Below are positions 27,958-64,000 of a stretch of 64,000 nucleotides of DNA, piece by piece. Numbering within the stretch: position 1 is the stretch's first letter; the number at the start of each line of letters is the position of its first letter. Below the pieces are notes generated by a model that did not search any database, had not been told where the DNA came from, and was given only the letters and a program-made list of their open reading frames with translations. The position numbers and the translations under genes were made by a program. Source of the stretch: a virus. Its lineage: Duplodnaviria > Heunggongvirae > Uroviricota > Caudoviricetes. The stretch is taken from positions 55,392-119,391 of the IMG/VR virus record IMGVR_UViG_3300036771_000024; one strand, 5' to 3'.

Positions 27958-28010
27958 AGAACCCGGGGCGGGACACCGGGCAGGGATAGGGCGGCTTACA
28001 TGTCGTTAGT

Positions 28011-28071: not shown

Positions 28072-28115
28072 TTACAGGCGTTGTGGCGTAAATGGTAAAC
28101 GCACACGACAATCAA

Positions 28116-28846: not shown

Positions 28847-29106
28847 GCTGGCAGCAGCTCCTCGAACAGATGCCACACCAGGGGCTCTATGATCGCCGTG
28901 CCACGGTACTCCGCATCATCAGGGACCTGATGACCGGTACCGAACACGCGCAGGCGGGCCGGGTGCGGTTCCCCGACACCGGAGAGCGCCCAGAAATGCA
29001 GGGGTGATACCTGACCGAAATGGGCAGCGACGTGGACGATCGGGCCGGTGAGCTGGACCTCGTGCCACTCGTCATCGACGGGGACCTCGTAGCGGAAGAC
29101 CTTCAT
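28843..29106 (-). CDS. hypothetical protein
   Basis: 87 aa; stop/start overlap with neighbours (operon). Confidence 0.45.
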   Translation of the reverse strand: MKVFRYEVPVDDEWHEVQLTGPIVHVAAHFGQVSPLHFWALSGVGEPHPARLRVFGTGHQVPDDAEYRGTAIIEPLVWHLFEELLPA

Positions 29107-31514: not shown

Positions 31515-31754
31515 ATGAAGATAACAGAACAGAAGGTTCCTGGTCGTATCGATCTTGAGAGGGTCACGATCAACCTCATCCCGCGAGCCTCAGACGCTCT
31601 CCACGAGGGTGTGGAGATGACAGGGGACAGCAAGACCGACTTCATCAACCGTGCCATACAGGCATTCTCCTGGCTGCAAGAGGTCATTCACAGCGGCGGC
31701 ACTGTCCTGGTCCGAGACGAAAAAGGCGAAACGTCCCAGATCCTGTTCCTGTAA
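31515..31754 (+). CDS. ribbon-helix-helix (CopG/Arc-type) DNA-binding protein
   Basis: RVTINLIPRASDALHEGVEMTGDSKTDFINRAIQAF = beta-strand + two helices; high GC3 in this frame; AT-rich upstream region. Confidence 0.45.
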   Translation: MKITEQKVPGRIDLERVTINLIPRASDALHEGVEMTGDSKTDFINRAIQAFSWLQEVIHSGGTVLVRDEKGETSQILFL

Positions 31755-32735: not shown

Positions 32736-32813
32736 CACGGCTTCTCTTTCCACGCATGATCGACGTACTCGTCTGGCCACTTGAACCATTTACCGCAACG
32801 AGGGCACTGTCTC

Positions 32814-32984: not shown

Positions 32985-33194
32985 CTCACCTACCTGCGGT
33001 CCGCACGCAGCGCACACGTCCCACGTGGTCCCGGTCGCATCGACGTGCAGCTCATCCTTCTCGAACCGGCCGTAGCAGATGCAGCACATCACCCGGCCGT
33101 CAGGGCAGACCGGCCCGGCGTGCCGCTGGGAGCAGCACAACCGGACCGGCTGGTAGCAGCACAGGTCGAGGGGGATCTCGTTAGTCCTTGTCAT
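32982..33194 (-). CDS. Cys-rich small protein (zinc-binding)
   Basis: CCYQP..CCSQRH..CPDG..CCICYG..CAACG. Confidence 0.4.
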   Translation of the reverse strand: MTRTNEIPLDLCCYQPVRLCCSQRHAGPVCPDGRVMCCICYGRFEKDELHVDATGTTWDVCAACGPQVGE

Positions 33195-38025: not shown

Positions 38026-38709
38026 GTGAGAGACCTGTCTGCTGCTTGCGCGGAGCTGACCGACCAGCTCAAGATCTTCGGCGACCCGGAGATAACACAG
38101 GACCGTGCAGACGGCGGGCTCCCCACGGTCGGGTGGATGGTCGTAGACCAGGATATAGAACCAGGACTGGGCCGGGCCGGGGTCCCCGCCACCCGCACAC
38201 CAGGGAACACGGCGGCTCTGAACGCGCAGCTCGACGCGCACGAAATGGTCCGCCGCCTGGAAGCTGCGCTGCGGCTGGCAGTAGCCGGGCATGCGGGCAG
38301 GGCCCGGGGAGGTTCGGACGGGAACACGGCGGCAGCCCTGAAAGCGATCCAGAATCTGGGTGCGGCGCTGCCGCAGGAGGTGAGGGATGCACGGGGGAAA
38401 CTGGTGTGGCCGTGCCAGGAACTCGCGGCCCGCGTGGTGGAACGGGCAGCGTCAGTGATCGGGCAGCTCCCAGCGGTCGATGAGGTCCCCAAATGGACGA
38501 AGATACGACCGGGGCCGGGCGGTCTTCCGCCCCGCTGCCCCAACTGTGAAACGTACAGCCTGCGCGTGGCGCTGGCCTCGGGTGTGGTGGTTTGCGTGTT
38601 CCCCGACTGCGAGGACCTGGACGGGAGGCATCCGCCCCAGGCCCGGATGGACATCAGCAGGATAGACGGCAGGCCCGTCCTGGTGTGGCGTGATGGCCTC
38701 GTCCAGTAA
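38026..38709 (+). CDS. hypothetical protein with C-terminal zinc ribbon
   Basis: CPNCETYSL...CVFPDC. Confidence 0.45.
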   Translation: MRDLSAACAELTDQLKIFGDPEITQDRADGGLPTVGWMVVDQDIEPGLGRAGVPATRTPGNTAALNAQLDAHEMVRRLEAALRLAVAGHAGRARGGSDGNTAAALKAIQNLGAALPQEVRDARGKLVWPCQELAARVVERAASVIGQLPAVDEVPKWTKIRPGPGGLPPRCPNCETYSLRVALASGVVVCVFPDCEDLDGRHPPQARMDISRIDGRPVLVWRDGLVQ

Positions 38710-38917
38710 CGGGCGTACCGGTCTGACAGCCAGGGAGATAGCGGACCTGCTCGACCCGCCTGTCACCACCCGGCAGGTCATGTGCATCGTGCAGCTACTC
38801 GGCCTGAAACCCTGCGGGTACCGCAGGTCAGGCCAGCGTGGCAGGCCAGCCGCCCTGTACGAGCCCGCAGCGGTCATGAAAGTACACGCTGCGCTCGTCC
38901 CGTATCTGCCGGGTTGA
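38690..38917 (+). CDS. small HTH DNA-binding protein (excisionase/MerR-like fold)
   Basis: LTAREIADLLDPPVTTRQVMCIV. Confidence 0.35.
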   Translation: MMASSSNGRTGLTAREIADLLDPPVTTRQVMCIVQLLGLKPCGYRRSGQRGRPAALYEPAAVMKVHAALVPYLPG

Positions 38918-38972
38918 AGCACCCGCGTTCGCGCACCGGGCACCGGGCCCGGTGCGCGAACGTGGAAGCTCC

Positions 38973-39878
38973 TTACTTATTGATCTGGAGGCCGCTGGAC
39001 TGGCCCGGGAAGCACCCCATGGGAGATTCCTTGTTGATCTCCACGTCCTTGAGGCACTGGGCGACCAGCTCGTTGACGGTCGGGTTCCCCAGGTTCTTGT
39101 ACGCCGTGGCGTTGGCCGTGTTGACCTTCTCGTTCTCCGTGGCGATCGTCGCGTTGGTGTACGCGGTCTGGATCTTGATCAGGTTGTTCTCGATCGCCGT
39201 GCTGTAGGTGATACGCGGCAGGTACACGGCGATCACGTTGACCTGGCCGCCGATGTCGGTCCGCATGGTCCGCAGGATGTCCGGACCGAACGCGGTGAAC
39301 TGGCTGGTGTTGGCGTTGCTGTTCACGGTGTTCTTGTAATCCGTGATCGGGTCGTAGTCACCGAGCTGGTTATTAACCACGACCTCCAGCTCCCGTACGA
39401 CCAGCGCGTTCTGGATTGCGTTCATGAGATCGCTGCGGTTCGCGTAGTCGGAGAACAGCGAACCTGCTGCACCAGACTTCACCCGGTACTGGATGGTGAC
39501 CTTCGCGCACGCGGGCTGCTGACCCCCGATACGGATGGGCAGCTCACCGCCGCACTGCGCGGTCCCTGGCAGCTGGCTCCCGTTCTCGAACGTGACCGTC
39601 TGTATGGTCTGGTCGATGATCGCCAGGTGCAGGAACGGGTTCCACGTCTCGTGCGCACCGGAGTTGTAGAACCCCTTCCCCACATGACCCAGTGACACCG
39701 GGACACCGACCGACTTGGCCGGGACCGATTTGATCCCGGACACGGCGAACGCACCGAACCCCAGCAGGGCACACAGGACCGCGCTCGCTGCGTACGCGGG
39801 TTTGTAATCGGAGGCCAGCAACGCGGCCCCGATGAGGATCAGCATGACCACCCACAGGATGATCGCTACGACAAACAT
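38973..39878 (-). CDS. SPFH/band-7-like membrane protein
   Basis: N-terminal TM helix; core resembles stomatin/prohibitin/HflK fold (…VTFENGSQLP…IRIGG…VTIQYRV…ALVVRELEVVVNNQLG…); slightly lower GC than surroundings. Confidence 0.45.
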   Translation of the reverse strand: MFVVAIILWVVMLILIGAALLASDYKPAYAASAVLCALLGFGAFAVSGIKSVPAKSVGVPVSLGHVGKGFYNSGAHETWNPFLHLAIIDQTIQTVTFENGSQLPGTAQCGGELPIRIGGQQPACAKVTIQYRVKSGAAGSLFSDYANRSDLMNAIQNALVVRELEVVVNNQLGDYDPITDYKNTVNSNANTSQFTAFGPDILRTMRTDIGGQVNVIAVYLPRITYSTAIENNLIKIQTAYTNATIATENEKVNTANATAYKNLGNPTVNELVAQCLKDVEINKESPMGCFPGQSSGLQINK

Positions 39879-53985: not shown

Positions 53986-54130
53986 GGCTCCTTGATCACC
54001 TCATCATCCTCAGCGTTGTAGTCACAGTGGCGGCAGTCACCGTTCTCGTCCACGCTGTGACCGAGCCGGTTACAGCCGAATATGGGATGGTCCGGGTTGA
54101 AACGGAACACATCCGCCTGCTTCCACCTCA

Positions 54131-54331
54131 TCAGTTCATCCCGGCGTCGATATCCCCTATAGGACCGTTGAACCGCTGGAGCTGCGCGATGCGCTCACCG
54201 GCGAGGGTGAGATCGATCGTGCTCACATCATGGTCGCCCCTGAGATCGATCAGGTCATCCGGGTTCAGCTCAACCGTCACGCGGTCGTTCTCGTGAGTGA
54301 CGGTGACCTTCATCGTTACCTCTTCAGGCAT
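54131..54331 (-). CDS. hypothetical protein
   Basis: 66 aa. Confidence 0.35.
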   Translation of the reverse strand: MPEEVTMKVTVTHENDRVTVELNPDDLIDLRGDHDVSTIDLTLAGERIAQLQRFNGPIGDIDAGMN

Positions 54332-54611
54332 TCTTGTTTTCCTCTCTTGCCTTGCGTGCTAGCTGGCAGATGAACGGGCCGCTCACACCGACCATCAGCC
54401 CCAGGTCGTTCAGGTTATGACCTGTCAGTGTCATCAGCAGCGCGACCTGCGCCCGGCGTGCGGAGAGGGCTTGTTCTTCCCGTCGCATTCCTGCGAGTTC
54501 CGCGGCCTGCTGACGCGCCATCTCGGTCCGGCGCGCCCGGTGTTTCAGCTTCAGCTCGTCCATCTCATCTGTGAGACCCAGGAACTGGGCGGCTAGCGTG
54601 TGGGCGTTCAT
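54324..54611 (-). CDS. putative HTH protein
   Basis: C-terminal LNDLGLMVGVSGPFICQLARKA. Confidence 0.4.
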   Translation of the reverse strand: MNAHTLAAQFLGLTDEMDELKLKHRARRTEMARQQAAELAGMRREEQALSARRAQVALLMTLTGHNLNDLGLMVGVSGPFICQLARKAREENKNA

Positions 54612-55033
54612 GTGGTTTTCACCTTCTTCAGCAGCGGGAACAGGTCATCGCCCAGCTCATTTTCGACCTGCCACCATTTCGTTGTCTGCTTACGGATGTA
54701 CTTGCCTTGCATCACCTGGTAATACTCGCGAGCCTGCGTGTCACCGGGTGCTTGCAGGGATATGACCCGCACTGACCAAGCGTTCCAGCGGTGCCAGTCG
54801 TCCCGCACTTCCTTAGGTACCGGACCTCGGTCTTTCACCTTGAACCCGCGTCGCCGTCCCCACACGCGTAGCGTCTCGTTGGAGGGGAACAGGCGGAACA
54901 TGACCTGACCCGGGCGGGCAGGCGGTATGACACTGCCCTTCTCGCCGGGTATGTTGTGCCGGGCACGTTTCGGCCGGGCACGGCCACCAGCGGTGCTGGT
55001 GGCCGTGCTCAGCGTGGCAGGAACCTCGGTCAT
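54608..55033 (-). CDS. protein with Lsr2-like C-terminal DNA-binding-domain motif
   Basis: ETLRVWGRRRGFKVKDRGPVPKEVRDDWHRWNAW resembles Lsr2 DNA-binding domain (IREWARRNG..STRGRIP). Confidence 0.4.
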   Translation of the reverse strand: MTEVPATLSTATSTAGGRARPKRARHNIPGEKGSVIPPARPGQVMFRLFPSNETLRVWGRRRGFKVKDRGPVPKEVRDDWHRWNAWSVRVISLQAPGDTQAREYYQVMQGKYIRKQTTKWWQVENELGDDLFPLLKKVKTT

Positions 55034-55509
55034 GGCGCTTCGTGACGACCGGGAACGGGTTCTTTACCGCCCGGAACCCAGTCCTCCACGCCACGCCGGA
55101 ACGCAGCGGTCTCAGCTGCCTGGATTCCCCGCTCCTGGTGGAGCTGGTCCAGCGTCATCCTGCGCTGCGCGACTGCGGGGCGAACCTTGCGGAGCTGGTT
55201 CCTGACTCGCCGCATGGCCTCGTGTTCCTGGCGTGCCGACCCGTCCTCGATCAGGACCCGCGCGGTGTGCTGGAGTGAATTCCCCAGGTTCACCAGGGCC
55301 CGGCCTATGGCCAGGTCCGTGGCGAGCACATCGTCGCGTACGTCTTTCGGTTCGCGTTTCGCCGAACCAGTCGCCTGGTCCTGGATGATCTGCCCGCCGA
55401 TGGTCTGCATGACCTCGGCGTGGGCGACGGTGGCATGCCGGTCGTTGATCACGAGCACGTTGACCATTAGTCTGTGCGGTGACCGGTGGATACGTTGTTT
55501 CTTCTTCAC
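55030..55509 (-). CDS. hypothetical protein
   Basis: 159 aa. Confidence 0.45.
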   Translation of the reverse strand: MKKKQRIHRSPHRLMVNVLVINDRHATVAHAEVMQTIGGQIIQDQATGSAKREPKDVRDDVLATDLAIGRALVNLGNSLQHTARVLIEDGSARQEHEAMRRVRNQLRKVRPAVAQRRMTLDQLHQERGIQAAETAAFRRGVEDWVPGGKEPVPGRHEAP

Positions 55510-55706
55510 TTACTGGGTCTCCTCGGTTTCCGTGGGTGGTTCAGCACAATGACGCAGGTCGGTGAGATGATCTTCAACCGGTTCCGGTCATTGCCAGCGA
55601 GGAACAACGCCAGGTCCTCGGCGAGCGGGTGCAGTTTGATTATCTGCACAGGCCCGCTGAGCGCGGCGATCCTCTTCGCTTTCGCGTGTGACACACGTGA
55701 CGCCAC
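55506..55706 (-). CDS. hypothetical protein (start moved to GTG downstream of dyad motif)
   Basis: ORF-track N-terminus is encoded by the conserved regulatory motif; GAAGGA RBS precedes GTG. Confidence 0.35.
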   Translation of the reverse strand: MASRVSHAKAKRIAALSGPVQIIKLHPLAEDLALFLAGNDRNRLKIISPTCVIVLNHPRKPRRPSK

Positions 55707-55717
55707 TACATATCCTT

Positions 55718-55740
55718 CCTGCTTGTCTCCTGGCAAGCAG
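55718..55740 (-). promoter_or_regulatory. conserved dyad motif copy 5 (minus strand: CTGCTTGCCAGGAGACAAGCAG) 7 nt upstream of RBS
   Basis: Read from sequence. Confidence 0.5.
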
Positions 55741-55804
55741 AGCGGCCACATTCCCCCCACTGGCGGAAATCCGGGGAATGCGACCGCTCCTCCTGGCAGG
55801 AACC

Positions 55805-56290
55805 TTAGCGGTCCCGGTCCGGCTTGACATTCCGGTTCCGGTCCTTTGACCGGCGCTGGTCACGCTCGTACTGGCCGATGTTGTCCCACGACACCCCGGC
55901 GCAGCATGCCGTGACGATCGCTGCGATACAGATCGCGATCCCGATGACGAGGAACGCCGCGGTCAGCGCGTTGGAGAAGCTGTCACCGCTGTGTGCCAGC
56001 GCGGTGGAGGGTACAGCTGCGATGAATGCCCCGGCCAGGAACATACCGATGGTGACGGGCACCCACCGTTCGGGGATACCCCAGTCTCGCCTCTGCTGCG
56101 GCATCGGCGGCAGTGGCATACCGGACAGGGTGGAGTTGAGGATGCTCAGGCTGCGTGCTTCCATGAGCTGGGCGCGGAGCTGGTCCGCTTCGGCGCGGTT
56201 CTGGATGTACCCTTCCGCGAACAGGTAGTTCAGGTGGTCGAGGTATCGCTGACGGTCCGTATCGGACGCCCGCGTGACTTCACTTCCCAT
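55805..56290 (-). CDS. DUF1707-like membrane protein
   Basis: N-terminal RASDTDRQRYLDHLNYLFAEGYI (DUF1707/SHOCT-like) + two TM helices. Confidence 0.5.
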   Translation of the reverse strand: MGSEVTRASDTDRQRYLDHLNYLFAEGYIQNRAEADQLRAQLMEARSLSILNSTLSGMPLPPMPQQRRDWGIPERWVPVTIGMFLAGAFIAAVPSTALAHSGDSFSNALTAAFLVIGIAICIAAIVTACCAGVSWDNIGQYERDQRRSKDRNRNVKPDRDR

Positions 56291-56300
56291 AGTTCTCCTT

Positions 56301-57422
56301 CTAGGTGAGGGAAGCTGCGAGCGCAGCGACCCGTGGGAGCTGCTGGTACATGGCGAGCTGAGCAGCGGGGAACCTCGACTGGATCGGTACGAGACCCTCC
56401 GTCAGTCCCGCTGCGGTACCGATCTTGTACACGGTGGGGAGGCCGTCGATGGTGTCACCTTCGTTGGATTTCGCGACGGACATGCCGCCCACCCTGACGA
56501 TGAACTCTGCCGAGACCATGCAGGGCGCGGCACGGAACCCGGTTGCCATGATCACCAGGTCATACGCCAGCCCGTTGACCATCGCTGTGCCGCCCAGCGG
56601 GATCATGCTCCCGCGGACCGGGTACGGCCGGATAACCGACCTCTCGCTTTCGAGACTCTGAGGGAAATGCCGGGCTAGACCCGAGAACCGCGCATGGTAA
56701 AGCTGAGCCCACGTGTTCTTCGATACCGGCATCCGGTCGCCCCCGTACCAGTGGATCTCGTACGGTGGAGTGGCAGGTGCGTCGATGCCCTGCCCGAGCA
56801 TGTACGCGGCGCATTGTGCTGCGGTGTCCCCGCCACCCACCAGCGCGATCCGCTTGTTGTGCAGCTCGCGGGGCGGTTTCACCATGAAGTCATACCCGGA
56901 CATGACTGCCTTGCAGCCGCTGTAGTCGTTCCTGGGGATGAGTCCGCCAGCGAACAGGATCCGCTTCGCGGTTCCCAGGTTGGCCCCGTCTGCCCGGAGA
57001 ACCTGACCGGAACGCCTGAAGATGATCCCGGTGACACCGGTGTACACCTCGGCGTACTCGGCTAGCGTCTTAGCGATGGTGTTACGCATGTCCGTCGAGT
57101 GCGGGTACTCGTACGCTCCCACATCACGTACCTGGTACTCCGAGTTGGGAATCCAGTTCAGGTCATCGATCCGCGACCCGGACATCACCCGGCTCGGCCC
57201 GGGTGAGCGGATCGATTCCAGACCCGCCCAGTTCTGCGAGTTCATCTCGAACCCGAGCAGCTGGGCGAACATCCCGCCCGTTGCGAGGTTCTGCTCGAAC
57301 ACGAGCGGTGGTGCGAACCCCGCGGCGCGGCGGGTTGCGCAGTAGGCTGCGGCTGCTGGCCCAGACCCGAGGATGACCTCTCGTCCCCGGACGCTGATGC
57401 TATCGGGCAGCGTGCGTGCCAT
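56301..57422 (-). CDS. FAD/NAD(P)-binding oxidoreductase (flavoprotein monooxygenase/pyridine-nucleotide-disulfide oxidoreductase-like)
   Basis: Two Rossmann dinucleotide motifs: VILGSGPAAAAYC and IALVGGGDTAAQCAAY; start ATG at MARTLPD. Confidence 0.55.
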   Translation of the reverse strand: MARTLPDSISVRGREVILGSGPAAAAYCATRRAAGFAPPLVFEQNLATGGMFAQLLGFEMNSQNWAGLESIRSPGPSRVMSGSRIDDLNWIPNSEYQVRDVGAYEYPHSTDMRNTIAKTLAEYAEVYTGVTGIIFRRSGQVLRADGANLGTAKRILFAGGLIPRNDYSGCKAVMSGYDFMVKPPRELHNKRIALVGGGDTAAQCAAYMLGQGIDAPATPPYEIHWYGGDRMPVSKNTWAQLYHARFSGLARHFPQSLESERSVIRPYPVRGSMIPLGGTAMVNGLAYDLVIMATGFRAAPCMVSAEFIVRVGGMSVAKSNEGDTIDGLPTVYKIGTAAGLTEGLVPIQSRFPAAQLAMYQQLPRVAALAASLT

Positions 57423-57498
57423 GTTGTTCTCCTTCCGGTACTTTTTTCCTCTTCTGAGCAGAACGATGGGCATGGCCCCCTCCTTCTGCGTTGTATCG

Positions 57499-57520
57499 GC
57501 ACTTGCCTCCTGGCAAGCAG
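57499..57520 (-). promoter_or_regulatory. conserved dyad motif copy 1 (minus: CTGCTTGCCAGGAGGCAAGTG) ~55 nt upstream of oxidoreductase GTG/ATG, preceded by GC hairpin 57521-57560
   Basis: Read from sequence. Confidence 0.5.
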
Positions 57521-57570
57521 AAGCCGCCCGCACCCATCGGGGCGCGGACGGCTTCCTCCTGGCAGGATGC

Positions 57571-57834
57571 TCAGGATGCGGGCACTTCCGGTGCCCTGCG
57601 CTGCGCCACGTTCTGCGGTGGCATCGCAGCAGCGGCCTTGGTCATCGCGTCAGCAGCGGCACGCCACACGGGTGCCTTGTACCCGTCCGCTGCGCGGGCG
57701 AATTCCAGTGACGAGATGACCTTCTCGTACGGGACACCAGCCCGGAGCGCGACCAGGACCGCGTCGATCAGCTGGTTCGCCGGTGCGGTATCGGGGTCGC
57801 GCTTCTTGGTTTCCTTCGGTTCTCCAGCAGCCAT
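57571..57834 (-). CDS. hypothetical protein
   Basis: 87 aa. Confidence 0.4.
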   Translation of the reverse strand: MAAGEPKETKKRDPDTAPANQLIDAVLVALRAGVPYEKVISSLEFARAADGYKAPVWRAAADAMTKAAAAMPPQNVAQRRAPEVPAS

Positions 57835-57846
57835 CGCTGGTTCCTC

Positions 57847-58092
57847 CTACTCGACTTGTTCTACCTTGATGACGGTGGACGTGATGATCTCACGTCCGGG
57901 GAATCTGGGATCCATCAGCGGATACCAGATGTACAGCGGGTAACCTTCACCCGCCAGGCCAACCTCTGCGAACACGCCCCTTTCTGTCACGGTCGGGCCG
58001 GACCAGGGTGTGGCCTCTGTCCGCTCCCAGGTTTTCGCGTCGTAGTCGACGCGGTACACAGACCCGGTGAGCGTCGTGACCTTGACGATCAC
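57847..58092 (-). CDS. hypothetical protein
   Basis: GTG start overlapping upstream stop; C-terminal part of ORF-track 57847..58353. Confidence 0.35.
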   Translation of the reverse strand: MIVKVTTLTGSVYRVDYDAKTWERTEATPWSGPTVTERGVFAEVGLAGEGYPLYIWYPLMDPRFPGREIITSTVIKVEQVE

Positions 58093-58592
58093 GAGACCGA
58101 AGCTGGATCCGTTTCCGGGTCCTCGATCAGCGCGTCCAGGATGCGGATCAGCCGCAGCCGTTCCCGGATGGGACTGAACACGTACTTCGCCTGATCCGTG
58201 GTGAGCCCCATCCTGCCGCCCACCCACGTTTCCATCTGCTGCCACGTACCGTCCGGGAAGACGATCGTCGCACCGTCGATGAACGAACCCGGCGGTGCGG
58301 ACAGAACCGCACCCCACCCGCAGGCACACGCGGTGCTGCCGCACATCGGCCACGCCGCTTCCATGTCGGACGGTTCCGCGTTCATCGGCTTGTCCGCGTA
58401 CTGGCGGATCAGGTCGATGGGGATCTGCCCCCTGTGGCAGTTGATCTCGTCGGGGGTGAGCCAGTAGTTCCCGAGCCAGCGTTCCTGGTCGTGCCGGTCC
58501 GGGTTGTTCACCAGGATGTCCCGCACGCCAGCTATCAGGTCCCGCCCCTCAAGCACGGGCGCGACCGCTGCTGCGTGCGCGGTCTCAGTCAT
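58089..58592 (-). CDS. hypothetical protein
   Basis: 167 aa; AAGGGAG RBS. Confidence 0.5.
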   Translation of the reverse strand: MTETAHAAAVAPVLEGRDLIAGVRDILVNNPDRHDQERWLGNYWLTPDEINCHRGQIPIDLIRQYADKPMNAEPSDMEAAWPMCGSTACACGWGAVLSAPPGSFIDGATIVFPDGTWQQMETWVGGRMGLTTDQAKYVFSPIRERLRLIRILDALIEDPETDPASVS

Positions 58593-58605
58593 GGTGTCTC
58601 CCTTC

Positions 58606-58627
58606 TGCTTGTCTCTCTGGCAAGCGC
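58606..58627 (-). promoter_or_regulatory. conserved dyad motif copy 2 (minus: CGCTTGCCAGAGAGACAAGCAG) directly upstream of RBS AAGGGAG; preceded by terminator hairpin 58631-58663 + TTTTG
   Basis: Read from sequence. Confidence 0.55.
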
Positions 58628-58718
58628 AAAACCGCCCCCGCCCATCGTGCGGGCGGGGGCGGCATGCGCACGTCAGGATCCAGTGGTCAGGATCGTGATA
58701 TTGCCGTGCTGGTCCCTG

Positions 58719-58958
58719 CTACCTGGCGCGCCGGGCGCGACCTCCGTCGGTGAAGCCGACCTGGTAGATCAGCTCCATCCCGAACCCGATCACGGCGATG
58801 GGCTCGTCGTTCTCCATCTGCTGACGGATGTACTCCCTCAGCTTGTCCTGGATCAGGTCCAGGAAGACGGGGACCGCTTCGGAGTCGAACGACTCCTCCG
58901 ACGGGGGCATCGCCATGATGTCCTCGGGGCTGACCTCCGTGTCGGTGTCTGATGCCAT
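58719..58958 (-). CDS. hypothetical acidic protein
   Basis: 79 aa. Confidence 0.4.
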   Translation of the reverse strand: MASDTDTEVSPEDIMAMPPSEESFDSEAVPVFLDLIQDKLREYIRQQMENDEPIAVIGFGMELIYQVGFTDGGRARRAR

Positions 58959-58970
58959 GACTGGTTCTCC

Positions 58971-60548
58971 TTACTGCGCCGTGACGGCGCTGTTGTCGGG
59001 CTTCTTGGTGAAGTCGATCCGGTAGCCCTCTTCGCTGGACACCATGGTCCCCTTGGTGGCGAGGATGGCGTTAGCGGCGGCCTGCTGGATCTGCACGTCG
59101 ATCGTGGTGAGGTCGTGATCGCCGTGGTGCGCGTTCTCCATGAGTTCCAGGTGGGACTTCATGCCGAGAGCAGCGTCGACCAGGTCCGCGGTGTGGATCT
59201 GGCTGGGCTTGCCCTCGTTCCTGCTGATGGAATACCGCACGGCCCGCTGAGCGGCCTCAGCAGCGAACGCGGGCAGGAACCCCTCGTACGCCGCTGCGAC
59301 CTGGGTGAAGTTGATCTCCTCGGCGAGGTTCTCGCCGACGAGGACCTTGACGAGCCTTTCGTACCCGTCAGCGTCCAGGGAGCCGACCGGGATCACCGCG
59401 TCGAGCCTTCCCGGGCGGATGACGGACTTGTCGAGCTTCCCGGCGAAGTTCGACGTGAACCCGGCCATGACCTCGGCACCCTTGGCCTGGACCCCGTCGA
59501 GCAGGTCCAGGACCTTCGCGATGGCCTTGCGGCCCTCGACCTGGGAGATACCTGCGGAGGCGATCACGTCGAGGTCTTCGACCCAGACGACCGCCGGTGC
59601 GTACATCTTCGCCGTGTTCAGCGCTGCGAACGGGTCGTCACCGGCCCTGACGAGGATGAACGTCCACCCGTGCTGCTCCGCGATCTGCGCGGTGAGCAGG
59701 CCCGCGAGGGTCTTACCGGTCCCGTTCGGGCCTTCGAGCAGCACGGCGCGCTTCAGCGGCAGGTCCGCGTCACGCATCGCCTCGGTGTACTGCATCGGGG
59801 CCCACAGGTTCACCTTGAGCTGCTCCAGCACCTCGGGCCGGTAGATGACCTTCCGCGGGTCGATCCCGCTGGTGTCCACGAACTGCGGCTCCTCGGGGTG
59901 AGCGGTGATCGCCTTCCCCTTGTAGATCGAAGCGGTTTGCAGTTCGTCGGTGATGACACTGAAGAACCCGTCGATCCGGGCCTTGTGCTTCTTCGGCGCG
60001 GTCACGGAGATCTGGAACACGACCCCGTACTCGTCGCTCATGGTCGCGCCGAGGATGAACGACGCGTTCAGGAGCGAGAAGTTGACCTTCCCCCACGGGA
60101 CTTGCAGGGTCTTGCCCCTGGGGCCGGCCGGGACGGACCTGTACTGCGGGGGCTGCTTACCGAAGATGCTGTACTGCGCCTTGCCGATGCCGGTGGTGCC
60201 GAACACCCGCTTCATTGCCCTGCTGAACGCAGCGGCTCCGTCTGCGGGCTTGAACGGGAACGTGCCGACGAACTCGTACTCCGCGTTCTGCTGCTCGTCC
60301 CATTCCTGGAGGAAATCGACAACCTCATCGATCTTCCCCTCCATCTGCTTCGGCAGGATGAACTGCGTCCCGTCGAACACGAGGCTGTCCTCGGTGACGT
60401 TCCTCTCACCGAGAGCATCCAGCTTTTCGAGCAGCGAAGCTGTGATCTTCTCCTGCTCCGTCATGGGACGGTTCGCCCGGGCCAGTGCCCGTTCGGCGGC
60501 GCGTTCCATCGACTTGTTACCGTTGGACCGTGTCCTGGTCGTAGCCAC
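58971..60548 (-). CDS. AAA+ family ATPase with ~280-aa N-terminal domain
   Basis: Walker A LLEGPNGTGKT, Walker B VVWVEDLD, sensor/Arg-finger region TSNFAGKLDKSVIRPGRLD (classic AAA clade); GTG start with GAAGGGAG RBS. Confidence 0.65.
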   Translation of the reverse strand: MATTRTRSNGNKSMERAAERALARANRPMTEQEKITASLLEKLDALGERNVTEDSLVFDGTQFILPKQMEGKIDEVVDFLQEWDEQQNAEYEFVGTFPFKPADGAAAFSRAMKRVFGTTGIGKAQYSIFGKQPPQYRSVPAGPRGKTLQVPWGKVNFSLLNASFILGATMSDEYGVVFQISVTAPKKHKARIDGFFSVITDELQTASIYKGKAITAHPEEPQFVDTSGIDPRKVIYRPEVLEQLKVNLWAPMQYTEAMRDADLPLKRAVLLEGPNGTGKTLAGLLTAQIAEQHGWTFILVRAGDDPFAALNTAKMYAPAVVWVEDLDVIASAGISQVEGRKAIAKVLDLLDGVQAKGAEVMAGFTSNFAGKLDKSVIRPGRLDAVIPVGSLDADGYERLVKVLVGENLAEEINFTQVAAAYEGFLPAFAAEAAQRAVRYSISRNEGKPSQIHTADLVDAALGMKSHLELMENAHHGDHDLTTIDVQIQQAAANAILATKGTMVSSEEGYRIDFTKKPDNSAVTAQ

Positions 60549-60572
60549 TTATGTGGCTCCCTTCGTTGGGTG

Positions 60573-60596
60573 CTTCTGCCTGCCTCTTGACAAGCG
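60573..60596 (-). promoter_or_regulatory. conserved dyad motif copy 3 (minus: CGCTTGTCAAGAGGCAGGCAGAAG) upstream of AAA ATPase gene; preceded by hairpin 60601-60627 + TTTAC
   Basis: Read from sequence. Confidence 0.5.
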
Positions 60597-60874
60597 TAAA
60601 CGCCCCGGGACCATGGGCCCCGGGGCGATGCGCATGACAGGATCCGGGTCATGCACCCTTGTTCGTGAGGTAATTGAAGCACTTCTTGCAGTACCCGCCG
60701 AGATTCAGCGCTCTTTTCTTTCCGCACCGTATACAGCGGTGCTTTTGCCTAGATCCCTTGCGTATCCCCATATCGGGTCCTCCTCGGCTTCCGCTTTCTT
60801 GCGTGTCTTGCGTTCGTCGTACAGGGCGTAGGCCACCGACGCGACCGACGCTATCGTGAATATGATGATGTAGA

Positions 60875-61090
60875 TCATGCGGCTGCGTCCACGGCCAGGT
60901 GGTGACCTGCCGCGGCGCACGCACACGTCCATGTCCCTTCCGGGTTTTCCTTGGTGCGCCTGGTGTACCCAGCGCGAGTACCCGGGCAGTTATGACCGAT
61001 GTCGTAGCACCGGTTCGGGTCACCGTCATGACCGGGGCCGCAGAAACCGCACGGTAGCGGTGGCGGTGGTGGTTCATCCGCTTTCTTCAC
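60875..61090 (-). CDS. Cys-rich small protein
   Basis: CGFCGPGHDGDPNRCYDIGHNCPG...CAC. Confidence 0.3.
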   Translation of the reverse strand: MKKADEPPPPPLPCGFCGPGHDGDPNRCYDIGHNCPGTRAGYTRRTKENPEGTWTCACAAAGHHLAVDAAA

Positions 61091-61129
61091 GATCCCGCCT
61101 CCTTCCTTCGGGGGATGCCGGGAGGGATC

Positions 61130-61330
61130 TCAGCGCACGCGGATGACTTCTGTCAGCTCCCATCCGTGCGGGTGTACCTCTTGACAGGCTTTCCACGCCG
61201 CGTGCTCGCTGGATTGCGCCCGCACCCATACCGTACGGTCGACTGGGCCTGAGTCGTTGTCACCAAGCTGCTCGTACAGGACCTTGTACAGGCCCATGTC
61301 AGCCGGGGGGATGCTGGCGACACCCATCAC
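61130..61330 (-). CDS. hypothetical protein
   Basis: 66 aa. Confidence 0.4.
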   Translation of the reverse strand: MMGVASIPPADMGLYKVLYEQLGDNDSGPVDRTVWVRAQSSEHAAWKACQEVHPHGWELTEVIRVR

Positions 61331-61989
61331 ACACCAGCAGGGTTCAGCTTGGCTGACACCTTCCCGACCAGAACCGTGCCCTGGTTGAGGTGCCGCGTGG
61401 CGGACGTGAAGTCGTCGGACTGCATGTCGGTGCCGGCCGCTGCGTACTGCCGCATCGCAGCGGAATACTCGGCTGTGCCGATCGGTGGCGGGGTGCCGGC
61501 CGCTGCGTTCGCGTCGCGTGTCAGCTGAGCACCATCCTGCTCGACCGCTGCGACATCCTGCGCGGACGCGTCCTGGCTGACGTTCGACACGTCAGTCTTC
61601 ACGGCCAGCAGGTTGTCATACCCGGGACCTGTGATCCACGTCAGCACCGAACCAGACCCGGTTGCAGCTTCTGGCGTGTTCGTGGTAGCCACGGCAGACG
61701 GCGTGTTACGCGGTGCCGGTGCCGTGGCCGCCTTGTGTCCGCCACCAGCCGCGAGGCTGATAGCGGTGATGCCGATGGCCACCACGACGGTACCGCCGAT
61801 GATGTTACGCGGCCTGTACCAGTGATGCACGGGCTGTACTACTGGCAGCCCGTCCGGGCTGGTGGTGGCTGGATCCCCTTCCTGGGGGTGCTGGCGGTGG
61901 TATTCGTCGCAGGCCGGGCACTGACCCGGCGGCTTGATGTCCCGCGTCATGTGGTTGTGCTGTGGGCGCGGCTGCTCTGGTGGTTGCAT
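61327..61989 (-). CDS. membrane-anchored protein (N-terminal CPACDEYH motif, one TM, extracytoplasmic domain)
   Basis: TM GGTVVVAIGITAISLAAGG; GAGGAGG RBS. Confidence 0.5.
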   Translation of the reverse strand: MQPPEQPRPQHNHMTRDIKPPGQCPACDEYHRQHPQEGDPATTSPDGLPVVQPVHHWYRPRNIIGGTVVVAIGITAISLAAGGGHKAATAPAPRNTPSAVATTNTPEAATGSGSVLTWITGPGYDNLLAVKTDVSNVSQDASAQDVAAVEQDGAQLTRDANAAAGTPPPIGTAEYSAAMRQYAAAGTDMQSDDFTSATRHLNQGTVLVGKVSAKLNPAGV

Positions 61990-62011
61990 GATTCCTCCTC
62001 ATGTTTTTGTG

Positions 62012-62032
62012 CGTTGCCTTCCCTGGCAAGCG
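62012..62032 (-). promoter_or_regulatory. conserved dyad motif copy 4 (minus: CGCTTGCCAGGGAAGGCAACG) 20 nt upstream of start at 61989; preceded by hairpin 62037-62062
   Basis: Read from sequence. Confidence 0.5.
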
Positions 62033-62078
62033 GGCCGTGCAGCACCATGCTGGGTGCTGCACCGCCCCCACGGCAGGG

Positions 62079-62618
62079 TCAGGTCCCGACGTACAGGTGG
62101 TGGGGCAGGATGTTCAGCGTGTACGTGTCGAAGAACGCATCCATGGACCCGGCGAGAGCACCGCAGTGCCAGTAGATGTGAGCTGCGAGGATCTCCCACA
62201 CGGAACCGCCGGTGGTCAGCGTAGCGGGCACACCCCGAGGTGGCGGTGCGTCCCACTGGTCGAATCGGCTGAGGACCGTCAGGGCCTTGACGACCGCCTG
62301 ACGGAACCGCAGCAGCAGCTCCTGCTTCCCGTAGTTCTCCCGCTCTACTGCCACCGCCTTGCTGAGCGGACCCGGGGCGGTGACAGAGGTCTCGTTGAAT
62401 ACGCGGTGGAAACCCTCGTCCAGCAATAGCGCACCGTCATCGAACCACGATGAGAACAGGTCAGCCACGCACGCGAGGTGCCCGACGGTCCAGGCTGCTG
62501 AGAACCCGTCCTGGTTCTCACGGAAGAACAAGCTGTCGGGCAGCGGTTCCATGGCGAGAATCAGCGTCTCACCGCTTCGCATGATCTGGCGGGTGACCAG
62601 ATCGTTGGGTGTGGTCAT
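62079..62618 (-). CDS. DinB/YfiT-like (mycothiol-dependent maleylpyruvate isomerase N-terminal domain-like) protein
   Basis: WTVGHLACVADLF and HIYWHCGALAGSMD His-containing helices typical of DinB_2 fold. Confidence 0.45.
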   Translation of the reverse strand: MTTPNDLVTRQIMRSGETLILAMEPLPDSLFFRENQDGFSAAWTVGHLACVADLFSSWFDDGALLLDEGFHRVFNETSVTAPGPLSKAVAVERENYGKQELLLRFRQAVVKALTVLSRFDQWDAPPPRGVPATLTTGGSVWEILAAHIYWHCGALAGSMDAFFDTYTLNILPHHLYVGT

Positions 62619-62764
62619 GATGATCTCCTATCCTGTGCATCTGACATGGCAGCCACGGTTGTGGTTGCCGCAGTGCTTACCCGCGCGGCACTTGAAATGC
62701 CACCACGTCTTGTATTCGCAGCGGCACGAACAGGACCGCAGCCTGCACCGCCGGTCGGCTGGCA

Positions 62765-63007
62765 TCAGGTCCCCTTATCTGGCGGGGTCCAGCCGGGTGG
62801 CATCAGGAACGCCTGCCACGTGTCGTTACGTGACTTCTTCCCCCACCTCGCCATCCGCGTGTACACGAAGATCCCCTCGATGCCGTTACGTTCAGCGGCT
62901 ATCTCAACGTGGACCATGTACCCTTCGAGCTGGGTGAGCTGGTCAAGCGGGAACGATACGATGAACGTGCCCTTGCGGGCCTCCACCGGGTCAATAGGTC
63001 CTATCAT
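62765..63007 (-). CDS. hypothetical protein
   Basis: 80 aa. Confidence 0.4.
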   Translation of the reverse strand: MIGPIDPVEARKGTFIVSFPLDQLTQLEGYMVHVEIAAERNGIEGIFVYTRMARWGKKSRNDTWQAFLMPPGWTPPDKGT

Positions 63008-63083
63008 TGCCCTGCCTTCTCAATGTGGTGCTGACATGCAACAGCGCCACCCACACTACGGGTGCGGGTGGCGCTGCAACAGG

Positions 63084-63509
63084 TCATACCTCGTGCTGGT
63101 CGGTGGTGAACTCCGCGTACACCTTCGCCGCGAACTCCATCACCGCGGGTATGGCGTCTTCGGGGGAACAGTCGTGCGCCTCGATCAGGTCCTTCACGAG
63201 GATCCGCGTGACGATCTCCACGAATCGCTCCAGGGAGCCTGCCTGCTCGACGGTGTACGCCAGCGCATCCCTGTACGCCTCGGGGGACATGAACGCAGCG
63301 GGCGGGTCGTCGTACGACAGGTGCCGCAGTTCACCGCCACCTTCGCCCAGCTGGACCATGAACCCGAAAGCCCTGGGTCCTCCCTCCGCACCGGGCAGTT
63401 CCTGCTGCTGACCGGGCCACGGCTCGAACTGGTGCGTACGCACCACGTTGCCGTCCTTGTCGAGCTTGATGAACGTTGACGGGATCCGCTGCTCGGGTTC
63501 GTCAGACAT
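63084..63509 (-). CDS. hypothetical acidic protein
   Basis: 141 aa. Confidence 0.45.
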   Translation of the reverse strand: MSDEPEQRIPSTFIKLDKDGNVVRTHQFEPWPGQQQELPGAEGGPRAFGFMVQLGEGGGELRHLSYDDPPAAFMSPEAYRDALAYTVEQAGSLERFVEIVTRILVKDLIEAHDCSPEDAIPAVMEFAAKVYAEFTTDQHEV

Positions 63510-63522
63510 GGTGGTGCTCCTT

Positions 63523-63945
63523 CTAGGGTGTGTAGATTACTTCGATGATCCCGGCGGGCTGGTTTTCCGTCGAGACGTGGCCGAGTTCCCGCCACCCGAG
63601 GTGCGTGGTGCGACGGTACACCTTGCCGTCCGCAGCTACCCCGATGGTGCCGGGCTTGTAGACCTGGCGGTGTTCCCGCATGTCCTTGATCAGGCGGTCG
63701 GGGGGGACCACGCCGATGCGGTTGTAGCTGGCCCTGATCTCACCGTAGGTGAACATCTCGGCTTCCTGCTTGAGCTGCTCGTCCACGTGCCGCATGACCG
63801 CGTCGGCCATGTCGAACGTGTACCGGTACGGGAACGTGATTTCCCCCGTGAATGCTGTCTCCTTGACTAGCGCCGCGAGAGCGTCACGGAGCTGGTTGCG
63901 GCTGATGAGCCTGTCACCACCGGGTGTGGACCGTACTTCGTCCAT
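63523..63945 (-). CDS. hypothetical protein
   Basis: 140 aa. Confidence 0.45.
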   Translation of the reverse strand: MDEVRSTPGGDRLISRNQLRDALAALVKETAFTGEITFPYRYTFDMADAVMRHVDEQLKQEAEMFTYGEIRASYNRIGVVPPDRLIKDMREHRQVYKPGTIGVAADGKVYRRTTHLGWRELGHVSTENQPAGIIEVIYTP

Positions 63946-64000
63946 GATTCCTTCCTTTCCTGGTGCTGGTGCTGGGGTGCGGCCCCGGGCTGGGACGGCC

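Follow-up and report, generated by a model that had tools for sequence, protein, structure and literature searches.

Accessory-gene cassettes of an uncultured actinobacterial phage are divided by five copies of a composite module ~75-90 bases long. The module is best read as a cis-acting RNA element, a 75-90-nt intercistronic punctuation on the coding (minus) strand, and not as a DNA operator, an interpretation we hold with moderate confidence. Strict sense orientation, G-U pairs, the stability of the sense fold, variable loop length and box-to-box distance, and the lack of orphan boxes all argue for RNA rather than for the site of a dimeric regulator.

Occurrence and architecture of the module

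An earlier note on this DNA, made from the sequence alone, had described a conserved dyad at five operon starts. Related sites were found at all five places (Table 1), but nowhere in the window (the whole 64-kb stretch analyzed) is the consensus CTGCTTGCC-N3-6-GGCAAGCAG matched letter for letter, and the motif is thus degenerate. A relaxed pattern run over both strands of the window returned these five sites only. The proposed recurrence could also be recovered from relatives alone: a covariance model trained on 40 module copies of related metagenomic phages, with the window sequence left out, gave exactly five full-length matches in the window, all on the minus strand between 55.7 and 62.1 kb (E 1e-20 to 3e-10), and its remaining matches there were bare hairpins with E of at least 0.003. 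The module is also conserved in related phages. Altogether ~48 distinct copies were collected from the window and 14 metagenomic loci of relatives, several of these loci deriving from one contig, and the AAA ATPase of the module-bearing relatives is 77-80% identical; since orthologues are numerous among the 48 copies, the p-values given below overstate independence. Folding energies of the five modules range from -40 to -54 kcal/mol (z-scores -3.3 to -6.0).

Table 1. Modules s1-s5 and their boxes. Positions refer to the window; forms A and B are described in the text; energies are in kcal/mol.
Feature	Position	Strand	Evidence	MFE structure	Context
Module s5 (whole)	62010..62082	-	Covariance model 44.2 bits, E 2e-10, full length	Form A, -47.3, z -3.9	Related site 62033-62011; DinB-like gene 62079..62618, stop TGA abuts up-box; 220-aa gene, start ATG 61989
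Module s4 (whole)	60574..60646	-	Covariance model 44.0 bits, E 3e-10	Hairpin + dyad hairpin (form B), -40, z -3.3	Related site 60597-60576; upstream of AAA+ ATPase gene 58971..60548, GTG start
Module s3 (whole)	58604..58682	-	Covariance model 61.9 bits, E 2e-15	Form A, -50.9, z -5.4	Related site 58627-58605; type II lower stem (GCGCA/UGCGC with UUUU); upstream of 167-aa gene, start ATG 58592
Module s2 (whole)	57497..57571	-	Covariance model 80.1 bits, E 1e-20	Longer flanks: form B, -53.6, z -6.0; slightly shorter stretch: form A, -52.9	Related site 57520-57499; 87-aa gene, stop 57571-57573, 3 nt ahead of up-box; oxidoreductase-like gene 56301..57473
Module s1 (whole)	55717..55805	-	Covariance model 64.3 bits, E 4e-16	Form A, -50.1, z -4.1	Related site 55740-55719; DUF1707 gene 55805..56290, stop TAA 3 nt ahead of up-box; 66-aa gene, start GTG 55706
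Up-box of s5, CCCTGCCGTG	62069..62078	-	Register search u_i:d_(11-i)		
Up-box of s4, TCCTGTCATG	60633..60642	-	Register search		
Up-box of s3, TCCTGACGTG	58669..58678	-	Register search		
Up-box of s2, TCCTGCCAGG	57558..57567	-	Register search		
Up-box of s1, TCCTGCCAGG	55792..55801	-	Register search		
s5 left box-loop-right arm, CTTGCC-AGGGAA-GGCAAC (form B, dyad of the earlier note)	62013..62030	-	5 contiguous pairs		
s4 left box-loop-right arm, CTTGTC-AAGA-GGCAGG	60579..60594	-	6 pairs, two G-U		
s3 left box-loop-right arm, CTTGCC-AGAGA-GACAAG	58608..58624	-	5/6 pairs, C-A mismatch beside loop		
s2 left box-loop-right arm, CTTGCC-AGGA-GGCAAG	57502..57517	-	6/6 pairs		
s1 left box-loop-right arm, CTTGCC-AGGA-GACAAG	55722..55737	-	5/6 pairs		

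The unit consists, in order, of a stop codon, an 'up-box' (TG)NA-TCCTGNC, a variable GC-rich stem-loop, a 'left box' (G)CTTGCCAG, a loop, a 'right arm', a leader and a start codon. The dyad's left half, (G)CTTGCCA, hardly varies, whereas its right half is kept only as GGCA plus a purine (right arm GGCAR), preceded by a purine loop of 4-7 nt, and the leader between right arm and start codon carries its own SD. The positional constraint is real, with the order hairpin, motif, SD and start codon kept at each of the five sites and the conserved box 26-52 nt before the start codons. Every hairpin is preceded by the up-box, TCCTG(C/A/T)C, a second conserved element that the earlier note had missed. 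By an ORF-based estimate, 26 of 48 copies have their up-box 0-3 nt after the stop codon, as do 11 of 19 counted against called genes; such adjacency is not universal, the gap being 62 nt at s4 and 40 nt at s3. There are no orphan boxes, the motif always being accompanied by hairpin and up-box. The start re-assignment proposed where ORF 55506..55760 overlaps the module was upheld: an independent gene call on the Logan contig (L003) likewise begins the 66-aa gene at this GTG, which has GGAAGGA 6 nt upstream. The boxes, together with the 'loop' AGGA and the SD-like AGGAGG, are conserved more strongly than a helix requires, and this excess could reflect an RNA- or DNA-binding protein.

Two mutually exclusive folds

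In form A, up-box UCCUGNC(AGG) and left box CUUGCCAGGA form a helix in fixed register across the variable GC-rich stem, giving a single hairpin of ~25-33 bp just past the stop codon of the upstream gene. RNAalifold, run on alignment A4 with no structure supplied, returned 21 pairs, 15 of them with compensatory changes, and paired up-box with left box. In the trimmed alignment, 81.9% of cells pair, compared to at most 53% with the partner slid, and the covariation score is 0.212 versus 0.128 in shuffles (none of 500 reached the observed value). The register u_i:d_(11-i) is kept in every copy, and the stretch between the aligned boxes varies from 15 to 51 nt. The lower stem switches blockwise between AGGAGGAA:UUCUGCUU, GCGCA:UGCGC, GCACG:CGUGC, GCAGA:UCUGC and GGAGG:CCUCC; the s3 orthologue L250:11909, with GCACG/CGUGC, carries two compensatory pairs. 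At s5, the up-box CCCUG pairs with CAGGG, a compensatory change from U-A to C-G common to the orthologues in L145 and L250. The outer helix (UCCUG:CAGGA, CCAG:CUUG) is near-invariant apart from this s5 lineage, and its pairing is therefore compatible with form A rather than proven by covariation. The 'CTG' that had been assigned to the left arm of the dyad is part of the form A stem.

Form B is the dyad of the earlier note, a small hairpin in which the left box pairs with the right arm GGCAR(G). A left box paired in this way cannot take part in the outer helix of form A, so that only one form can exist at a time. The two are nearly iso-energetic, as at s2, and the MFE structure alternates between them among copies. 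Form B has a mean of 4.46 contiguous pairs against 1.83 in shuffles, with 0/500 shuffles reaching the observed value; since the left arm is invariant, its support consists of this pairing excess and of one-sided changes. The left-box pairing of s4, CUUGUC:GGCAGG, depends on its two G-U pairs, and the top pairs of the s1-type dyad are not kept, as orthologues carry ACCAAG and GTCAAG.

RNA element or DNA operator

Every copy, whether in the window or in relatives, is on the coding strand, confirming the co-orientation with genes seen earlier. In 39 of 48 copies the sense strand gives the more stable fold (mean advantage over antisense 3.9 kcal/mol, p 2e-7), and covariance-model scores are 12-41 bits for antisense (only 40.7 bits at s2) versus 44-80 bits for sense. 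The copies contain 115 G-U pairs.

The dyad had originally been suggested to be a double-stranded DNA operator bound by a dimeric phage repressor or activator, for which stoperators and the inverted repeats of clusters O and EG would be analogues. The conserved inverted repeats of phiC31 would be a further analogue. The imperfect inverted repeat does have an invariant TGCC/GGCA core with sequence kept beyond structural need, several HTH proteins are encoded within the window, and the right ends of actinophage genomes often carry short intergenic inverted repeats (PMC4351075, PMC7302621). However, half-sites are 4 to 7 nt apart depending on the copy, the right half is degenerate (GGCA, GACA, ACCA or GTCA), and the outer bases of the left arm co-vary with the up-box, not with the right arm. 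The base that follows, opposite T (U in form B), is A in 21 copies and G in 21, a choice that is neutral only for RNA, where U-A and U-G both pair. Strict strand orientation and the sense-strand G-U bias also speak against an operator, as does the restriction to five sites, all fused to hairpin and up-box, while likely regulatory regions in the rest of the 64 kb have none. We consider an operator quite improbable.

Termination and initiation

A GC-rich stem-loop precedes each site as described before, but the T-run said often to follow it is present at only two of the five, at 58.6 kb (TTTT) and 60.6 kb (TTT). The hairpin tails (UUUUGCGC, UUUACGC or UUCUGCUU-like) are short or interrupted compared to a full U-tract, and a terminator scan flagged none of the five modules. 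The terminators and the five transcription units of the earlier note are putative. Nor did the suggestion hold that TTGCCA doubles as a -35 element: no copy has a -10-like hexamer 16-18 nt downstream, a promoter scan gave nothing on the minus strand at the modules, and they lack a sigma-70 -10 element.

The lack of a -10 weighs against another explanation, a terminator and promoter cassette of the PeSL type. In this scheme the hairpin ends the upstream transcript, and the sequence from left box to right arm (CTTGCCAG-N-GAGGCA-N-GCA) serves as a promoter specific to the phage. Either the host RNA polymerase, aided by a phage factor, or a so far unrecognized phage polymerase would use it, and transcripts would start just past the box with a short SD-containing leader. 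Such a promoter would account for the asymmetric, sequence-specific conservation over ~20 nt, including the 'loop', and for the fixed position before start codons; a 305-aa protein of the phage contains an HTH resembling sigma-70 region 4, and a stem-loop always precedes the box, as in the T4-type PeSLs that form recombination joints among small accessory genes (PMC2839356, PMC4122927). It leaves unexplained the up-box, its fixed register with the left box and the covariation, while the box contains a variable nucleotide (CCAG-N-GAGG) and a loop of variable length, does not occur by itself at the start of any transcription unit, and is accompanied by no polymerase-sized ORF outside the tail genes. 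We therefore regard this explanation as rather unlikely.

Proposed role and cassette exchange

As an RNA element, the module may act through its hairpin and imperfect U-rich tail (UUCUGCUU or UUUUGCGC) in transcription attenuation and/or processing, and the hairpin would also shield the upstream message at its 3' end. When a ribosome halts 0-3 nt ahead of the up-box, it would cover this box and leave the left box available for refolding into form B, and cleavage in the long helix could release the left box in the same way. Form B would then provide a structured 5' end on the message of the next cassette, ahead of its own SD. With such a 5' end and the hairpin, we propose, each cassette would be insulated and its expression set individually.

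The conserved boxes also act, as is partly shown by the data, as short homology joints for cassette swaps between phages. Of 36 blastn HSP ends, 14 fall within modules (+/- 30 nt), which make up 8.6% of the region (p 7e-7), and a 1.2-kb cassette interrupts an s1-type module in L145. A structure-specific recombination site like integron attC, in which the folded single strand is the recombinase substrate for cassette insertion and excision, would share the architecture of complementary conserved ends around a variable central hairpin, strand-specific and directly after the cassette ORF, and relatives indeed differ in cassette content with breakpoints at modules. Yet an integrase or recombinase domain is absent from the larger window ORFs scanned, and the breakpoints are scattered over the up-box, the hairpin loop, TTGCC and the region after the dyad. 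This scatter fits short-homology recombination better than one fixed crossover point, and the phage genes include a RecT-like annealase and an exonuclease; an attC-like site seems very improbable.

Comparison with known systems

The module is a variant of composite intergenic cassettes already known in other phages, and its closest analogues are the PeSLs of T4-type phages, the SAS/ESAS of cluster K and the RNase III sites of T7. The RNase III signals of T7 are long irregular intercistronic hairpins with an internal loop, repeated at many gene junctions with sequence common to the copies, and leave a 3' hairpin on the upstream message. The module resembles them in length (two helical turns or more), irregular shape, internal loop and recurrence at gene junctions with common sequence; we know of no T7 counterpart to its alternative 5' hairpin.

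Actinobacterial intrinsic terminators likewise place a GC-rich hairpin and a U-containing tail after a stop codon, but the tails of the module are interrupted (UUCUGCUU) or short (UUUU) and lie within a conserved paired box. Mycobacterial polymerase is reported to need a U-tract, with NusG helping at suboptimal terminators (Czyz et al. 2014, PMC3993855). Stoperators (cluster A) and the cluster O and EG inverted repeats (PMC4351075, PMC7302621) are, like the module, short conserved intergenic repeats of actinophage genomes, and stoperators are also oriented with transcription. However, stoperators are asymmetric 13-14-bp DNA sites in ~20-30 or more copies genome-wide, and the O and EG repeats are perfect palindromes with fixed spacing, those of cluster O lacking a preferred orientation and lying partly inside genes, whereas the module has five copies in 6.4 kb, always hairpin-fused, with variable spacing and RNA-type covariation.

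The earlier comparison with start-associated sequences, motifs in one orientation ahead of start codons, was apt. The SAS/ESAS of cluster K mycobacteriophages and cluster EF Microbacterium phages (PMC3203893, PMC7302621) are similarly family-specific, lie in one orientation ahead of some start codons in the non-structural right part of actinophage genomes, and contain AGGAG; the ESAS, like the module, has two conserved imperfect inverted repeats around a variable spacer, the left better conserved. The SAS, in contrast, occupies the RBS position, with 3-7 bp between it and the start codon, where the module has its box farther upstream and an SD of its own. In the ESAS, spacers measure 4-13 bp and RNA pairing was not supported according to the authors (PMC3203893, PMC7302621), whereas the spacer of the module is a 27-60-nt hairpin whose pairing is backed by compensatory changes.

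PeSLs (promoter-early stem-loops; Arbiol et al. 2010, PMC2839356; Comeau et al. 2014, PMC4122927) belong to phages of a different host phylum and are unrelated in sequence. They have a demonstrable sigma-70 -35/-10 promoter and a stem-loop that is a tested terminator, whereas the module lacks a -10 and has boxes on both sides of the stem-loop that pair with covariation, and an alternative hairpin. Nevertheless, both are small composites repeated between small accessory ORFs in a plastic genome region, with a stem-loop and conserved sequence just ahead of the SD of the next gene. Both coincide with boundaries of insertion, deletion and replacement between related phages, and for both, recombination between elements is the proposed means of shuffling.

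Five copies of one module on the coding strand

The literal consensus of the dyad motif that the earlier note had placed at five operon starts has no exact match in the window, but five related sites do lie on the minus strand where they had been placed, reading CTGCTTGCCAGGAGACAAGCAG, CTGCTTGCCAGGAGGCAAGTGC, GCGCTTGCCAGAGAGACAAGCAG, ACGCTTGTCAAGAGGCAGGCAG and CCGCTTGCCAGGGAAGGCAACGC. Every site is preceded by a GC-rich stem-loop and followed by a Shine-Dalgarno sequence (SD) and a start codon. A half-site search with one mismatch allowed was enriched (42 vs 19.8) yet uninformative. The sites are positionally constrained. A covariance model trained on 40 copies, all from relatives, matched the window at full length exactly five times (44-80 bits, E 3e-10 to 1e-20; s1 to s5 in the table), each time on the minus strand. 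The antisense strand at the same loci scored 12-41 bits, and the remaining matches in the 64 kb were bare hairpins with E >= 0.003. In independent gene calls on the matching Logan contig, intergenic gaps of 90-157 nt in the module stretch fall exactly on the five sites, and the first downstream gene also begins at 55706, in agreement with the start re-assignment suggested earlier.

A sixth copy at ~63.0 kb was rejected; its stem-loop (63041-63077, minus strand) is similar by eye, but the covariance model fits the hairpin part only (E 0.018). This very strong stem-loop lies right behind the TGA stop of a 141-aa open reading frame (ORF; 63084..63509) and ahead of an 80-aa ORF (62765..63007), and its flanks, TGACCTGTTGCA and CTGTTGCATGTCAGCAC, loosely resemble the module's up-box and left box (see below). 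The element could be a terminator and no more, or else a decayed or ancestral module. Two further GC-rich hairpins, at 19465-19502 and 38927-38961, have about equal covariance-model scores on both strands, resembling terminators that work in both directions where the coding strand switches; the 38.9-kb hairpin lies between the convergent genes 38690..38917 (+) and 38973..39878 (-).

Predicted folding as a single long hairpin

The order of hairpin, dyad, SD and start codon described in the earlier note was borne out, while the unit proved larger than was seen there: an alignment of the five intergenic regions revealed an extra conserved box, (A/G)(A/T)TCCTG(C/A/T)C, upstream of each hairpin. 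The layout in the relatives is (TG)NA-TCCTGCCAGGAGGA, an unrelated GC-rich hairpin, TTCTGCTTGCCAG(N)GAGGCAR, a 10-30-nt leader, and the SD and start. We refer to the conserved parts, from 5' to 3', as the up-box (TCCTGNC), the left box (CTTGCC) and the right arm (GGCAR). With the T of TCCTG numbered u2 and the first T of TTGCC numbered d1, the register u_i:d_(11-i), i = 2-16, is kept in every copy, scoring 10-12.5 of 15. Since this register is unchanged although the aligned boxes are separated by anything from 15 to 51 nt across copies, the whole module is predicted to be a single long hairpin, form A, with the up-box paired to the left box. RNAalifold, with no structure supplied, found the same pairing of the boxes among 21 pairs, 15 of which show compensatory changes. 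When the variable stem was left out of the alignment, 81.9% of cells paired, compared with at most 53% for slid partners, and the covariation of form A was above that of all 500 shuffles.

The stem portion adjoining the boxes switches in blocks (table), and by these block-wise compensatory changes the CTG or GCG previously assigned to the outer part of the left dyad arm belongs to the hairpin stem. The outer helix (UCCUG:CAGGA, CCAG:CUUG) hardly varies, with CCCUG:CAGGG in s5 and its orthologues as the sole clear compensatory event. A TG is kept 3-4 nt before TCCTG in most up-boxes, even in copies whose upstream gene ends elsewhere (TGAATCCTG, TGATTCCTG, TGGATCCTG), with examples at 7862-7870 and 10150-10160 of the related metagenomic loci L007 and L085, respectively. 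In the register of form A, this TG would face the CA of the right-arm GGCA and could add two pairs to the helix. A long-range pairing of the right arm with CCUGCC of the up-box had neither extension nor support and was dropped.

Module copies, stem blocks adjoining the boxes, tails following the stem, and genes referred to in the text
Feature	Coordinates	Strand	Stem block	Tail after stem or remark
s1	55717..55805	minus	AGGAGGAA:UUCUGCUU (most copies)	(C)UCUGCUU (CUCUGCUU)
s2	57497..57571	minus	AGGAGGAA:UUCUGCUU (most copies)	UUCUGCUU
s3	58604..58682	minus	GCGCA:UGCGC (also several relatives)	UUUUGCGC
s4	60574..60646	minus	GCGCA:UACGC (imperfect)	UUUACGC
s5	62010..62082	minus		CCCGCUUG; not U-rich, two U in eight
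Orthologue of s3 in related locus L250			GCACG:CGUGC	
Found among the module copies			GCAGA:UCUGC	
Found among the module copies			GGAGG:CCUCC	
AAA ATPase gene	58971-60548	minus		Start differs by source: 525 aa from GTG 60548 (Logan), 512 aa (JGI cluster representative P0001)
RecT-like single-strand annealing protein gene	33181-34335	minus		
Cas4/RecE-like PD-(D/E)XK exonuclease gene	31590-32789	minus		

A competing hairpin and the case for RNA

The left box CUUGCC is also complementary to the downstream GGCAR(G), which is the dyad of the earlier note and gives a small alternative hairpin, form B. Its contiguous pairs average 4.46, compared with 1.83 in shuffled tails, and none of 500 shuffles reached 4.46. 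Loop lengths of 4, 5, 6 and 7 nt occur (AGGA, AGNGA, AGGGAA and others); A and G each face the second U in 21 copies; and s1 orthologues have GA, AC or GT in place of the GG of GGCA. The variable loop, the equality of A and G, and the changes in the right arm suit an RNA hairpin, not a protein dyad of fixed spacing. Forms A and B use the same nucleotides and are mutually exclusive. The RNAfold optimum is split about evenly between the two forms across the copies; of the five window modules, s1, s3 and s5 are predicted to take form A, and s2 and s4 form B.

The dyad had been proposed as the operator of a dimeric protein, an interpretation that implies two equivalent half-sites at fixed spacing. 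The half-sites are in fact unequal and 4-7 nt apart, with a degenerate right half and A and G equally frequent at one position. All module copies lie on the coding strand, their folds contain 115 G-U pairs, the sense fold is better than the antisense fold by 3.9 kcal/mol on average, and is the better one in 39 of 48 copies (p 2e-7, for copies that are not independent), and no box occurs without a hairpin in the window or the relatives. A hairpin tolerates an exact register combined with a widely varying linear distance, which two cooperating DNA sites would not. Strand, G-U pairs, sense stability, register and the lack of lone boxes favour an RNA element over a double-stranded operator, and we regard a DNA operator as quite improbable. 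From sequence comparison, we conclude that this is an RNA module lying between cistrons, with two predicted folds that compete and a structure demonstrated by covariation, and the conserved dyad should not be annotated as an operator.

Promoter and terminator features

The suggestion that TTGCCA doubles as a -35 element did not hold up, as no copy has a -10-like hexamer (TANNNT) 16-18 nt downstream. A sigma-70 promoter reading of the module was likewise rejected, the consensus promoter scan giving no minus-strand site at any module. GC-rich hairpins, a feature of intrinsic terminators, are present at the modules, with the tails listed in the table. In a canonical intrinsic terminator, a U-tract of 7-9 nt would directly follow the stem; a terminator scan with a threshold of at least 5 T in 8 flagged none of the five module hairpins. 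Partial termination at these hairpins is possible, since the mycobacterial polymerase, reported to be U-tract-dependent, is aided by NusG at suboptimal U-tracts (PMC3993855). The hairpins should not be read as proven terminators, and the five proposed transcription units are likewise not established.

The phage and its relatives

The phage is of siphovirus type with a high GC content (~63%). On its plus strand, an ORF for a tape measure of 1,833 aa precedes a 1,080-aa ORF, which is read as a tail protein, and a long block of small genes occupies the minus strand from ~39 to 64 kb of the window. Just past the tail genes, on the opposite strand, lies a 371-aa ORF with a ricin-type beta-trefoil lectin domain (19575-20690, -), and a lone tRNA gene, tRNA-Pro (UGG), is found mid-window (28001-28072, +). 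A 305-aa protein (22763-23680, +) has a C-terminal HTH matching sigma-70 region 4 (Pfam E 6e-7; SigA region 4 structures weakly); no region 2 was found in it, and the protein is a candidate regulator. Two Lsr2-like proteins are encoded on the minus strand (28355-28876 and 54608-55033), one matching the dimerisation domain and the other, weakly, the DNA-binding domain; in the related locus L007, an Lsr2-like and a ParB-like gene adjoin the modules. The phage may not be temperate, because no integrase domain was found in the larger window ORFs scanned.

No near relative was present among 50,697 deposited phage genomes, and INPHARED phages gave no match in either near or distant search mode; the window's sole exact counterpart is a 26-kb Logan contig. 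The AAA ATPase is ~37% identical to homologues in McProf-like Mycobacteroides prophages and Gordonia phages, which are remote matches only. An IMG/VR search for relatives with a single window protein found nothing. Metagenomic relatives, on contigs of 50-104 kb, have AAA ATPases 77-80% identical to that of the window. An SD (GAAGGGAG) 8 nt upstream of GTG 60548 speaks for the longer form of the window's ATPase.

Approximately 48 distinct module copies were gathered from the window and its relatives, the latter represented by 14 metagenomic loci, several of which share a contig. Gapped two-box patterns were scanned over IMG/VR, metagenomes and 185,579 genomes; the matches, mostly due to chance, were filtered by hairpin energy, which separates true modules (-25 kcal/mol or lower) cleanly from chance matches (-23 or higher). 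In the IMG/VR and metagenome scans, a strong hairpin between the boxes occurred only in copies of this phage lineage. By the two-box scan, none of 185,579 species of bacteria and archaea, each represented by one genome, has the module, and it was not found in deposited phages. The more distant relatives L248 and L249 (AAA ATPase 60% identical) contain no modules and hence added no covariation. An exact 18-mer had two chance matches in IMG/VR, without hairpin or gene context. Rfam cmscan of 54000-64000 (E <= 5) gave only chance-level miRNA and snoRNA matches, far under gathering scores; the module matches no family.

Modules at stop codons and cassette boundaries

By an ORF-based estimate, 26 of the 48 copies have the upstream stop codon 0-3 nt ahead of TCCTG, and our own count over the called genes of four loci gives 11 of 19 (s1, s2 and s5 in the window); a terminating ribosome would therefore cover the up-box. 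In blastn comparisons of the window with relatives, 14 of 36 HSP ends fall within modules +/-30 nt, far in excess of expectation for 8.6% of the region (p 7e-7), and in some window-relative pairs the module is the sole conserved island. In the related locus L145, an s1-type module is split (7365-7470 and 8625-8745) by a 1.2-kb insert with its own module and gene; the left fragment retains the up-box and 5' arm, and in the right fragment a new up-box is joined to the 3' arm, left box and dyad of the original. The split copy is direct evidence that a cassette was inserted or deleted within a module. The RecT-like annealase and the Cas4/RecE-like exonuclease together make up a phage recombination pair, which could act on short homologies like those of the conserved boxes. 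Breakpoints at structured intergenic elements also raise the question of an attC-like recombination site. Integron attC sites involve a nearby tyrosine recombinase and a single fixed crossover point, whereas no recombinase domain was found in the scanned ORFs and the homology breakpoints lie at varied positions within the modules; we consider such a site highly improbable.

Proposed function and comparison with known systems

We infer that the module probably serves as RNA punctuation, acting in attenuation and/or processing, in end protection and as a switch set by terminating ribosomes or cleavage, with a role as a recombination joint as a by-product. A more elaborate version, a ribosome-sensing RNA switch doubling as a portable cassette linker, is offered with little confidence. 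On terminating at the stop codon, which is part of the foot of form A, a ribosome would open the up-box:left-box helix, and the left box, now free, would refold into form B; the choice of fold would then set whether the junction is cleaved or terminated, or the ribosome or transcript is passed to the next cassette. The SD-like AGGAGG found in both boxes might keep the released 30S subunit attached across the hairpin, a prokaryotic shunt. By way of the conserved ends, RecT-type recombination would be able to place any cassette at any junction without loss of its expression control. The diverged copies were enough for covariation to show an RNA structure with two competing folds, tied to stop codons and cassette boundaries. 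If confirmed, the punctuation module would provide a testable model for the insulation and individual tuning of accessory genes inside one long phage operon, an actinobacterial counterpart to PeSL-mediated modular shuffling, and a compact, portable expression-control part for high-GC hosts.

Conserved intergenic repeats are known in many actinophage clusters (stoperators, SAS/ESAS, cluster O and EG repeats), most of them without a mechanism. The cluster A stoperator has an asymmetric 13-14-bp consensus (GGTGGMTGTCAAG-like) with many copies genome-wide. The resemblance to stoperators drawn in the earlier note is not sustained, the module having an unrelated sequence, as was remarked there, and only five copies, confined to 55.7-62.1 kb. 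Stoperators and the cluster O/EG palindromes (PMC4351075, PMC7302621) differ from the module in symmetry, spacing, copy number and distribution. The nearest actinophage precedent is the SAS-ESAS of clusters K/EF (PMC3203893, PMC7302621), but the 13-bp SAS is in RBS position, 3-7 bp before the start, whereas the module's TTGCC lies 26-52 nt before it, with a separate SD after. The cluster K ESAS comprises two conserved imperfect inverted repeats with a 4-13-bp spacer, for which RNA pairing was considered and rejected by the authors (PMC3203893, PMC7302621); departures within the repeats do not speak for pairing. The module also has two conserved, partly complementary boxes, but they are 27-60 nt apart, the spacer forms a hairpin, and the pairing is backed by covariation.

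Closest in architecture and evolutionary role is the T4-type PeSL (PMC2839356, PMC4122927). As there, a stem-loop adjoins a conserved element between small accessory ORFs, and the modules are indel and replacement sites between related phages, as seen from the HSP ends and the split L145 module. The defining sigma-70 -35/-10 early promoter of the PeSL is, however, absent, and a PeSL-like terminator combined with a non-canonical promoter seems unlikely to us. For the RNA punctuation module that we prefer, T7 RNase III sites are the closest mechanistic model: form A is predicted to be an irregular intercistronic dsRNA of ~25-33 bp, and such a signal calls for at least about two helical turns. 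Among the conserved composite intergenic cassettes known from phage accessory regions, the module represents a new family by sequence and a new variant by structure.
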